Below are positions 10,243 through 10,847 of a stretch of 44,890 nucleotides of DNA, one piece after another. A model generated the notes under the pieces. It had not been told where the DNA came from and made no database searches. It worked only from the letters and a program-made list of their open reading frames with translations. Source of the DNA: Escherichia phage Ivi; sequence record PV841871.1. One strand, written 5' to 3'. Each line of letters opens with the position of its first letter. Positions within the stretch are counted from its first letter, which is position 1. Position numbers and translations under genes: made by a program.

Positions 10243-10275
10243 AAAAGGCCCCATAATGGGGCCTTAGTTTTATTT
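10243..10275. terminator. bidirectional intrinsic terminator between convergent genes
   Basis: AAAAGGCCCC-ataat-GGGGCCTT followed by AGTTTTATTT. Confidence 0.7.
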
Positions 10276-10791
10276 AAATCGCGCAGGCATTAACACCATA
10301 AAGGCCGTGTTTGAAAATTGTATTTTGCATCCTCTGGTTTGGTCCTGGAAATCGAAACGAGCAATTTCATTTTTGTATGCCTTAGAAATCTTGTACGCGT
10401 CTGCCAAATAGCGCAGAGTGAACCCTATACTGTCGACAACACCCGGTGTGATGTGCGCCACGCGTCTCCAGTCAGGAAAGTTTCCTTCTACAACATCTAC
10501 CGGAAGTGTACATATAAGCGCACGATTATCGTCATAGAAAGATACACTGCCGTTGTCGTGGTTTACCTCTGCGTAGTTAAATTTAGAAGGCTCTCTCCCT
10601 TTGATGTCTATGAGAGTCCCTTTCTCAACGTTGGTCTTCACATTGTCGCAGAACAATCTATGACCGTCCGTAGACACTATCAATCCTTCAGGGTCTATGT
10701 AAAAAGCGTTCAAATAGTAGCGAACATCATTTTTAGCCCTGCATATTTTCGCCCCTACATACGCAGGGAAAGTAATTACTGTAGTAACCAT
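10270..10791 (-). CDS. truncated DNA polymerase III beta sliding-clamp (DnaN) homologue, 173 aa
   Basis: DVRYYLNAF...STDGHRLF (E. coli DnaN: DVRYYLNGM...ATDGHRLA); FPDWRRV (DnaN FPDYRRV); C-terminal VLMPARF (DnaN VVMPMRL); RBS AGGAG; own class I promoter. Confidence 0.8.
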   Translation of the reverse strand: MVTTVITFPAYVGAKICRAKNDVRYYLNAFYIDPEGLIVSTDGHRLFCDNVKTNVEKGTLIDIKGREPSKFNYAEVNHDNGSVSFYDDNRALICTLPVDVVEGNFPDWRRVAHITPGVVDSIGFTLRYLADAYKISKAYKNEIARFDFQDQTRGCKIQFSNTAFMVLMPARFK

Positions 10792-10818
10792 TTATCATCT
10801 CCTGTTTAAGTTAACCGA

Positions 10819-10847
10819 ATAGTACCCTATTATATTGGGGTGTGCAA
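10819..10847 (-). promoter_or_regulatory. Class I promoter (TTGCAC-N17-TACTAT) driving the DnaN-like gene
   Basis: Reverse-complement match to the class I consensus; contains AATAG-GGTA-CTATT. Confidence 0.5.

Follow-up and report, generated by a model that had tools for sequence, protein, structure and literature searches.

A small leftward gene in the genome of Escherichia phage Ivi (sequence record PV841871.1) encodes a truncated, pocket-only variant of the bacterial sliding clamp. We call the product mini-beta; it is a member of a family of short phage proteins that resemble the beta subunit of DNA polymerase III (beta, DnaN). The analysis covered one stretch of 44,890 bp, referred to below as the window, which is essentially the complete genome of a virulent E. 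coli siphophage of the Kagunavirus group (Guernseyvirinae); vB_EcoS_fPoEco01 is 97.5% identical to it over the 3.5 kb tested. Mini-beta retains the hydrophobic pocket that takes the clamp-binding motif (CBM) of clamp partners, and it lacks the parts with which beta closes into a ring. We tentatively favour the reading, predicted from the sequence, that it is a soluble CBM receptor or decoy, which would compete with host beta for CBM clients. A preliminary description, made from the DNA alone, had located the gene and had called its 173-aa product a truncated DnaN homologue on account of three matching sequence blocks. Location and length are correct and the blocks are genuine and well above chance, the homology being recovered by phmmer, by a family profile, by AlphaFold2 and by Foldseek.

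10270..10791, minus strand: coding sequence of mini-beta, the 173-aa, 19.7-kDa truncated beta-clamp homologue, with an ATG start

In a phmmer search against the PDB, residues 16-116 of mini-beta aligned with residues 144-252 of E. coli beta, and residues 117-171 with residues 312-365 (E 3.7e-5). A family alignment of 48 sequences was used as a profile, as input for AlphaFold2 and for the analysis of conserved columns. As a profile it matched E. coli beta with an E-value of 1.4e-27. The AlphaFold2 model built with it has a predicted local distance difference test (pLDDT) score of 95.1 and a predicted template modelling (pTM) score of 0.91, and its top Foldseek matches in the PDB are exclusively beta clamps (E 6e-8). 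The beta-alpha-beta-beta-beta repeats of the beta-clamp fold are present. The preliminary description had made its claim dependent on a DnaN-like fold in profile and structure comparisons, and both comparisons return one.

The boundaries of the truncation were taken from the alignment of DnaN to the family, in which the E. coli sequence is consistent with the PDB alignments. Residues 3-116 of mini-beta fall on beta ~126-252, which is domain II, and residues 122-173 on beta ~317-366. Domain I (beta 1-125) and the N-terminal half of domain III (~254-311) have no counterpart. The second helix of domain II is also gone in the Kagunavirus subgroup, where residues 59-101 form strands only in the AlphaFold2 model, whereas the more distant members of the family keep this helix in the alignment. 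The C-terminal piece that is kept consists of a helix and three strands; in beta it packs on domain II and forms one wall of the pocket. The continuous sheet across the boundary of domains II and III is preserved. The absence of domain I had been noted before, and the loss is now seen to extend to half of domain III and to the second helix of domain II. The earlier statement that the domain II/III region is kept is right for domain II, minus one helix, and has to be narrowed for domain III, of which only the pocket-forming C-terminal half remains.

Compared with E. coli beta (PDB 1MMI/2POL), mini-beta thus has 173 instead of 366 aa, and the three tandem clamp domains of DnaN are not found in it. 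At E<=10 its sole Pfam match is a partial DnaN central domain (17.2 bits against a cutoff of 27), and NCBIfam TIGR00663, the dnaN equivalog, gives 20.3 bits against a cutoff of 137.65. Because these scores lie below the cutoffs and because the interface residues and most DNA-contact residues of beta belong to the absent segments, mini-beta is, judged from its sequence, a beta homologue and not a DnaN-type sliding clamp.

The residues concerned are well defined in beta. At the dimer interface I78 and F106 pack on I272 and L273, and K74, R96, R103 and R105 form ion pairs with E298-E304; in the complex of loader, clamp and DNA, the contacts named are Q15, G23, R24, R73, R80 and Q149 (PMC11139829). 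In the alignment, every listed dimer-interface residue falls in beta 1-125 or 254-311, both absent from mini-beta, and five of the six DNA contacts (Q15, G23, R24, R73, R80) lie in the absent domain I. The model of mini-beta contains two channel-type helices, compared with four in the equivalent segment of beta. Since all listed interface residues, and all but one of the six DNA contacts, belong to the missing parts, mini-beta should be unable to form a canonical beta ring, and these features argue against a closed ring that is loaded on DNA and confers processivity.

The pocket, by contrast with the ring elements, is retained. It is formed by 18 residues (PMC11139829), of which R152, L155, T172, G174, H175, R176, L177, P242, R246, V247, V360 and M362 belong to subsite I and H175, N320, Y323, V344, M362, P363, M364 and R365 to subsite II (PMC11139829). 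Mini-beta is identical to E. coli beta at 15 of the 18 positions, including all 12 of subsite I; the changes are N320T, V344T and M364A. Some of the 48 family members are only ~23-30% identical to mini-beta, and the positions that are invariant or nearly so among them (R24, Y25, Y26, L27, T41-R45, P106-V111, Y128, M168, P169 and R171) belong, with few exceptions, to the pocket or directly adjoin it. Of the 18 pocket positions, 13 rank within the 27 most conserved columns of the family (hypergeometric p 9e-9), and no second conserved surface stands out in the alignment of 48 sequences. The pocket characteristic of DnaN is therefore present, and binding of CBM peptides is predicted.

A possible functional analogue is the monomeric beta variant I272A/L273A. 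It does not form a ring, has an intact pocket, binds delta with a Kd of ~7.5 nM, which is ~50 times tighter than the ring does, and cannot support processivity, as it does not tether DNA polymerase III (Pol III) processively (PMC11139829). By analogy, we predict that mini-beta behaves like this variant. The two differ in that the variant is engineered, keeps all three domains at full length and still binds DNA, whereas mini-beta is natural and has 1.5 domains. A natural counterpart is E. coli beta*, an ultraviolet-inducible product of an internal start in dnaN, which lacks domain I, has domains II and III complete and is reported to act as a clamp. Beta* and mini-beta are both natural, N-terminally truncated forms of beta, and mini-beta also lacks half of domain III.

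According to the favoured reading, mini-beta would be a stable, autonomous, non-ring fragment of beta that keeps essentially one feature of the clamp: a hydrophobic pocket, situated where domains II and III meet, which takes the CBMs (Q-phi-x-L-F) of clamp partners. As a moron-type cassette with its own promoter-like element, the gene would supply a competitor of the host beta ring for at least one host protein with a CBM. Candidate clients are delta/HolA, Pol III alpha, Hda, MutS/MutL, Pol II/IV/V and RecB. Since mini-beta should be able neither to encircle DNA nor to join a beta ring, its clients would be titrated away from host DNA transactions. We infer that the pocket binds CBM ligands, that these are host proteins and that the effect is competitive. 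Among three modes of action put forward in the preliminary description, the sequestration of clamp-binding partners fits best, because the CBM pocket is the conserved part. In RecB, a functional CBM has been shown to bind this pocket too (PMC13254535), which puts an anti-nuclease role among the candidates for a decoy. Small phage proteins that interfere with host clamp transactions, as is proposed for mini-beta, are known: N4 gp8 targets HolA, the delta subunit (PMC6466130), and the complex of gp168 with the beta clamp has been solved (PDB 7EVP). Both are unrelated to mini-beta and bind the host target, whereas mini-beta would mimic the docking site of the target.

Homologues of mini-beta are numerous. 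Residues 13-172 match PHROG 3007 over positions 12-186 of the 190 in the profile (E 3.6e-36), 72 homologues were found for mini-beta, and tblastn detected homologues in 237 phage records, from lineages that include Kagunavirus, Cornellvirus, Dhillonvirus, Skatevirus, Naesvirus (Bcep43), Serratia phage Eta and Vibrio and Acinetobacter phages. The same architecture is present in phages of Escherichia, Salmonella, Klebsiella, Vibrio, Burkholderia and Acinetobacter, and in several lineages the gene is antisense within the head block. The family profile was also run against 1.84 billion representative proteins and gave at least 145 matches at E<=1e-30, each match being a cluster at 50% identity; the best 150 matches are all 141-254 aa long and are matched end to end. 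In BFVD, many viral models of 163-266 aa have the same truncated fold, with template modelling (TM) scores of 0.8-0.87 normalised both ways. As one architecture runs through the 150 best representatives and the BFVD models, the truncated design is old and successful rather than a recent accident. The ratio of nonsynonymous to synonymous substitution rates (dN/dS), calculated pairwise among four Kagunavirus orthologues, is 0.14-0.27, and on this sequence evidence the mini-beta gene is under purifying selection.

A mini-beta-like region was also found in BFVD model A0A6J7W9M3_1 (Foldseek E 2.2e-5, TMq 0.53), a protein of 1394 aa from an uncultured Caudovirales phage with a large polyvalent protein-associated domain. 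This model hints that the module can belong to conflict-type polyvalent proteins; the paper on polyvalent proteins makes no mention of clamps.

Several members of the family have been annotated before, so that the gene is not a new discovery. The protein of fBC-Eco01 (gp04c) is 100% identical to mini-beta and is labelled 'DNA polymerase III sliding clamp' in GenBank. The Snoke record (CPT_Snoke_006) cites an HHpred match of 99.88% to E. coli beta, and the note on Bcep43 gp15 reads 'DNA Pol III b subunit fragment'. These short phage 'DNA Pol III beta' proteins of PHROG 3007, together with Serratia phage Eta gp10, share family and architecture with mini-beta; the distant members differ from the Kagunavirus subgroup in that they keep the second helix of domain II. 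The family is large and functionally unstudied. The only paper found that discusses the gene restates the textbook function of the clamp (PMC9825357). A literature search returned no functional study of short phage beta-like proteins, and none on Kagunavirus transcription or on E. coli beta*. PHROG 3007 carries the label 'RusA-like Holliday junction resolvase', which has passed into many newer phage records (H22, H26, H27, H32, H34 and others). A RusA-like identity was rejected for mini-beta, as Pfam at E<=10 gave no RusA match and all structural matches are sliding clamps; for the same reasons the label is an annotation error.

The phage encodes its own T7-style replication set, consisting of a family-A DNA polymerase, a helicase-primase, a helicase, a gp2.5-like single-stranded DNA-binding protein (SSB) and exonucleases. 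Four of these genes serve as reference points:

33750-35990, minus strand: family-A DNA polymerase (PolA)
36201-36827, minus strand: gp2.5-like SSB
37402-38658, minus strand: exonuclease
40315-42582, minus strand: helicase-primase

Phage Jersey has no homologue of mini-beta (tblastn E>0.1). Its PolA, SSB, helicase and exonuclease are 87-98% identical to those of the phage studied here, and its helicase-primase 57%. Phages with the mini-beta gene and phages lacking it have colinear PolA. Since the gene is absent from Jersey despite the near-identical replisome, and since it lies 23 kb from the phage's own PolA, mini-beta is accessory and not replisomal. The canonical CBM, sought as Q-phi-x-[LM]-[FL] or Q-phi-x-[LM]-x-[FL], was not found in PolA, helicase-primase, helicase, gp2.5-like SSB or the two exonucleases. 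The accessory character, the distance from the replication genes, the foreign composition of the gene and the lack of a canonical CBM in the replisome are the reasons for which a decoy is favoured. To these are added the neighbours in other phages: the homologue in LPST10 is co-oriented with an anti-restriction gene, ParB-like genes neighbour the homologues in LPST10 and Eta, and at L002 and L017 the gene is located in early-type operons beside DUF932.

A protein with DUF6378 was observed next to or near a short beta-like gene in three unrelated metagenomic contigs (L004, L005, L018). DUF6378 and DUF932 proteins are possible functional partners.

Several observations weigh against a decoy, or at least against a simple one. 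None of the 87 genes of LPST10 encodes a DNA polymerase, so that this phage must use host Pol III, and it keeps a homologue with the C-terminus VVMPMRL, which is beta's own; blanket inhibition of the host replisome therefore cannot be the general function of the family. As a general CBM sink would harm this Pol III-dependent phage, the action of a decoy would have to be selective or dosed. In Dhillonvirus, a Gam-like RecBCD inhibitor and a mini-beta homologue occur together, which also speaks against a blanket sink. In distant phages the gene is part of replication operons, being located beside PolA at L016, beside a primase-helicase at L018 and beside a helicase in Eta; these contexts favour a positive role in replication. 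The pocket motifs are the best-conserved parts of full-length clamps too, so that part of their conservation could be structural. Nor is the pocket inviolable: in the Cornellvirus orthologue at the same locus (L011 3992-4501, Salmonella phage vB_CECAV_044), TDGAIL replaces the otherwise invariant TDGHRL at the equivalents of H175/R176, and the pocket of this lineage may be altered or inactivated. Mini-beta is mildly basic (isoelectric point (pI) 8.3; family median 7.7), in contrast to the acidic beta (5.25), which is compatible with some affinity for DNA. Finally, mini-beta has diverged more than the flanking head proteins (43% against 64-93% identity), and this value is within the range of 32-68% for replication proteins between the same two genera, so that there is no clear signal of an arms race. 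The idea that mini-beta evolves faster than the replisome was dropped for this reason.

The serious rival, which we consider less likely than the decoy and clearly the strongest of the alternatives, is a recruiting adaptor or accessory factor of the replisome, whose pocket would bring CBM-bearing enzymes to phage DNA or to the replisome. Its targets could be host Pol I, ligase A, Pol III or a phage protein with a non-canonical motif; in a variant of this reading, mini-beta would tether the phage polymerase like the non-ring processivity factor UL42 of herpesviruses. The replication-operon contexts at L016, L018 and in Eta, the mildly basic pI and the retention of the gene in polymerase-less phages agree with such a role. 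Less easily explained by it are the absence of the gene from Jersey, whose replisome is near-identical, and the colinear PolA in phages with and without the gene. The same holds for the distance of 23 kb to the replication genes, for the antisense position among the head genes and for the foreign composition. The phage PolA, helicases, SSB and exonucleases, as described above, offer no canonical CBM, and the family alignment no second conserved surface. Herpesvirus UL42, UL44 and PF-8 are obligate subunits of the polymerase, built of two complete clamp domains with a basic face that binds DNA; for the accessory mini-beta, neither two complete clamp domains nor an obligate polymerase partner was found.

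A six-frame scan of the window for CBMs gave a handful of matches, a number estimated (not computed) to be near chance level. One of them is a perfect pentapeptide, QADLF, at 16569 (plus strand), within an ORF (open reading frame) at 16410-16826 that corresponds, by its position relative to the Snoke record, to an SPP1 gp17-like tail-to-head joining protein; it was set aside as a chance match, a small number of which would be expected by estimate. The ParB-like neighbours of the homologues in LPST10 and Eta were examined for a CBM as well, and the idea was rejected: one weak hexamer (QMHLSL) is present in one of them and is not shared. The helicase-primase (40315-42582) and the exonuclease (37402-38658) share an acidic C-terminal heptapeptide, VTEEDLE, and the gp2.5-like SSB has an acidic stretch followed by RRERRRR. 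These sequences are reminiscent of the acidic C-terminal tails by which T7 gp4 and gp2.5 dock on the polymerase.

The preliminary description had also suggested that the fragment could cap or poison the host clamp; in this reading it would join beta monomers or open rings and block ring closure or loading. Mini-beta is homologous to beta, and the sheet edges left unsatisfied by the truncation could conceivably pair with beta. We regard this mode as improbable, because the residues through which beta monomers meet (I78, F106, K74, R96, R103, R105, I272, L273 and E298-E304) are all located in the deleted segments. The monomer model, with a pLDDT of 95, suggests a self-sufficient fold, and a poison would be harmful to the Pol III-dependent phages that carry the gene.

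Still less probable is a true sliding clamp formed by a new oligomer, for example a six-domain ring of four protomers with 1.5 domains each. The arithmetic and the continuous sheet across the boundary of domains II and III would allow it, and E. coli beta*, which consists of domains II and III, is reported to oligomerise. In the Kagunavirus form, two of the four expected channel helices are missing, most of the listed DNA-contact residues are absent, the distribution of the gene is that of an accessory function, and there is no clamp-loader gene in the phage or in its annotated relatives. A relic without function, left from a captured host dnaN, or a RusA-like resolvase, is hardly credible: the gene is a fragment of a host-type gene and its PHROG is labelled RusA in many records, but the dN/dS values, the architecture conserved across phages of six host genera, the gene's own expression signals, a Pfam match to the DnaN central domain only and the beta-clamp fold all contradict it.

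The mini-beta gene is oriented leftward within the rightward head block; its neighbours are a Hoc-like decoration gene (9780-10241) and spanin and scaffold genes. The signals of the gene and the two further copies of its upstream element are as follows:

10799..10803, minus strand: Shine-Dalgarno sequence AGGAG, read from the sequence, 7 nt upstream of the mini-beta ATG
10819..10847, minus strand: promoter-like 29-mer TTGCACACCCCAATATAATAGGGTACTAT, which reads TTGCAC-17 nt-TACTAT and has an embedded TATAAT
20013..20041, minus strand: sister copy of the promoter-like element, ahead of the gene for a 63-aa superinfection-immunity-like membrane protein (19780-19971) and the exonuclease gene 18610-19740
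43526..43554, plus strand: sister copy of the promoter-like element, ahead of rightward small genes at the right end (43588-44802)
10245..10265: G+C-rich hairpin AAGGCCCCATAATGGGGCCTT, common to the convergent Hoc-like gene (plus strand) and mini-beta (minus strand)

The ribosome-binding site AGGAG is annotated likewise in the Snoke and Shashou records. The element at 10819-10847 had been described as a class I promoter. The 29-mer is repeated, with three copies in the window at <=3 mismatches against none expected, but a sigma-70 consensus scan did not flag it at 10819-10847. Every copy is located 25-45 nt before a Shine-Dalgarno sequence and ATG, the conserved block stopping ~8 nt past TACTAT, and in XY2, Shashou and Snoke the element is found upstream of the orthologue at equal distance. 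The term promoter-like is kept because of this repetition and fixed spacing. A near-identical element of 29-37 bp (TTGCRCACCCCAAYATAATAGGRTACTATTC) was observed in three copies. The invariant 'spacer' and the embedded perfect TATAAT are unusual for a plain sigma-70 promoter, and the element may also be the site of a regulator. We infer that mini-beta is expressed early. On the other side of the gene, the hairpin at 10245-10265 was called as a terminator on the plus strand (9-bp stem, T-run) and is followed by TTTTAT on the minus strand; the Snoke record has terminators annotated on both strands. It is probably a bidirectional intrinsic terminator, as had been proposed.

The coding sequence of mini-beta has a G+C content of 43.1% (45% at third codon positions, GC3), compared with 50.6% for the genome and 52-57% for the flanking head genes; the gene of the major capsid protein has a GC3 of 67%. 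In Shashou, the whole cassette is located at another site, flanked by the portal and morphogenesis genes. A promoter-like element and a terminator of its own, antisense orientation, distinct G+C content and patchy distribution thus mark the mini-beta cassette, by sequence, as a self-contained, moron-like unit, for which separate transcription is predicted; this agrees with the earlier view of it.

At the sister copy on the minus strand, a mechanically called ORF of 109 aa (19780-20109, minus strand) runs past the promoter-like element. The most likely start of the gene is the ATG at 19971, preceded by AGGAG, which gives the membrane protein of 63 aa. This protein matches the 'immunity to superinfection' family PHROG 1039 (E 1.4e-23), and its gene has the lowest G+C content among the genes checked (39.6%).

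Further features were observed around the mini-beta gene. A TTG-initiated ORF of 163 aa (10318-10809, plus strand) lies wholly antisense to it and is most likely a shadow ORF rather than a gene. A non-coding gap of 376 bp (10792-11167) with a G+C-rich core separates mini-beta from the i-spanin gene and contains a strong hairpin with a T-run at 11123-11142 (plus strand), directly ahead of the spanin start. Close relatives align to this gap in two pieces and have an HNH endonuclease or a small ORF there. An Rfam scan of 10200-11250 gave no match above noise, and PADLOC gave no hit. In Snoke (L001 3408-5267), the head-morphogenesis gene has an intein of 273 residues, whereas its orthologue in the window (8704-9780) has none.

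The beta clamp is the central hub of DNA replication and repair in bacteria, and its pocket is an antibiotic target. That a large phage family keeps this pocket alone, having shed all that a clamp needs to encircle DNA, suggests that phages use the pocket by itself, whether for sequestering clamp clients or for recruiting them. It is possible, on present sequence comparisons, that the short beta-clamp proteins form a widespread class of phage 'decoy receptors' that capture the CBMs of host proteins such as delta/HolA, Hda, MutS/L or RecB, a broader claim that we hold with more reserve than the decoy reading of mini-beta itself. If true, such receptors would act in infection by redirecting or disabling the replication, repair or nuclease activity of the host, and host takeover would proceed by mimicking the binding site of a hub rather than by inhibiting the hub. 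Assays of pocket binding and screens for inhibitors could make use of mini-beta as a minimal scaffold that occurs in nature. Identification of its ligands would correct two spreading annotations, 'DNA polymerase III sliding clamp', with its implication of a processivity ring, and 'RusA-like Holliday junction resolvase', and knowledge of these ligands would reveal which clamp-dependent processes of the host matter in infection.

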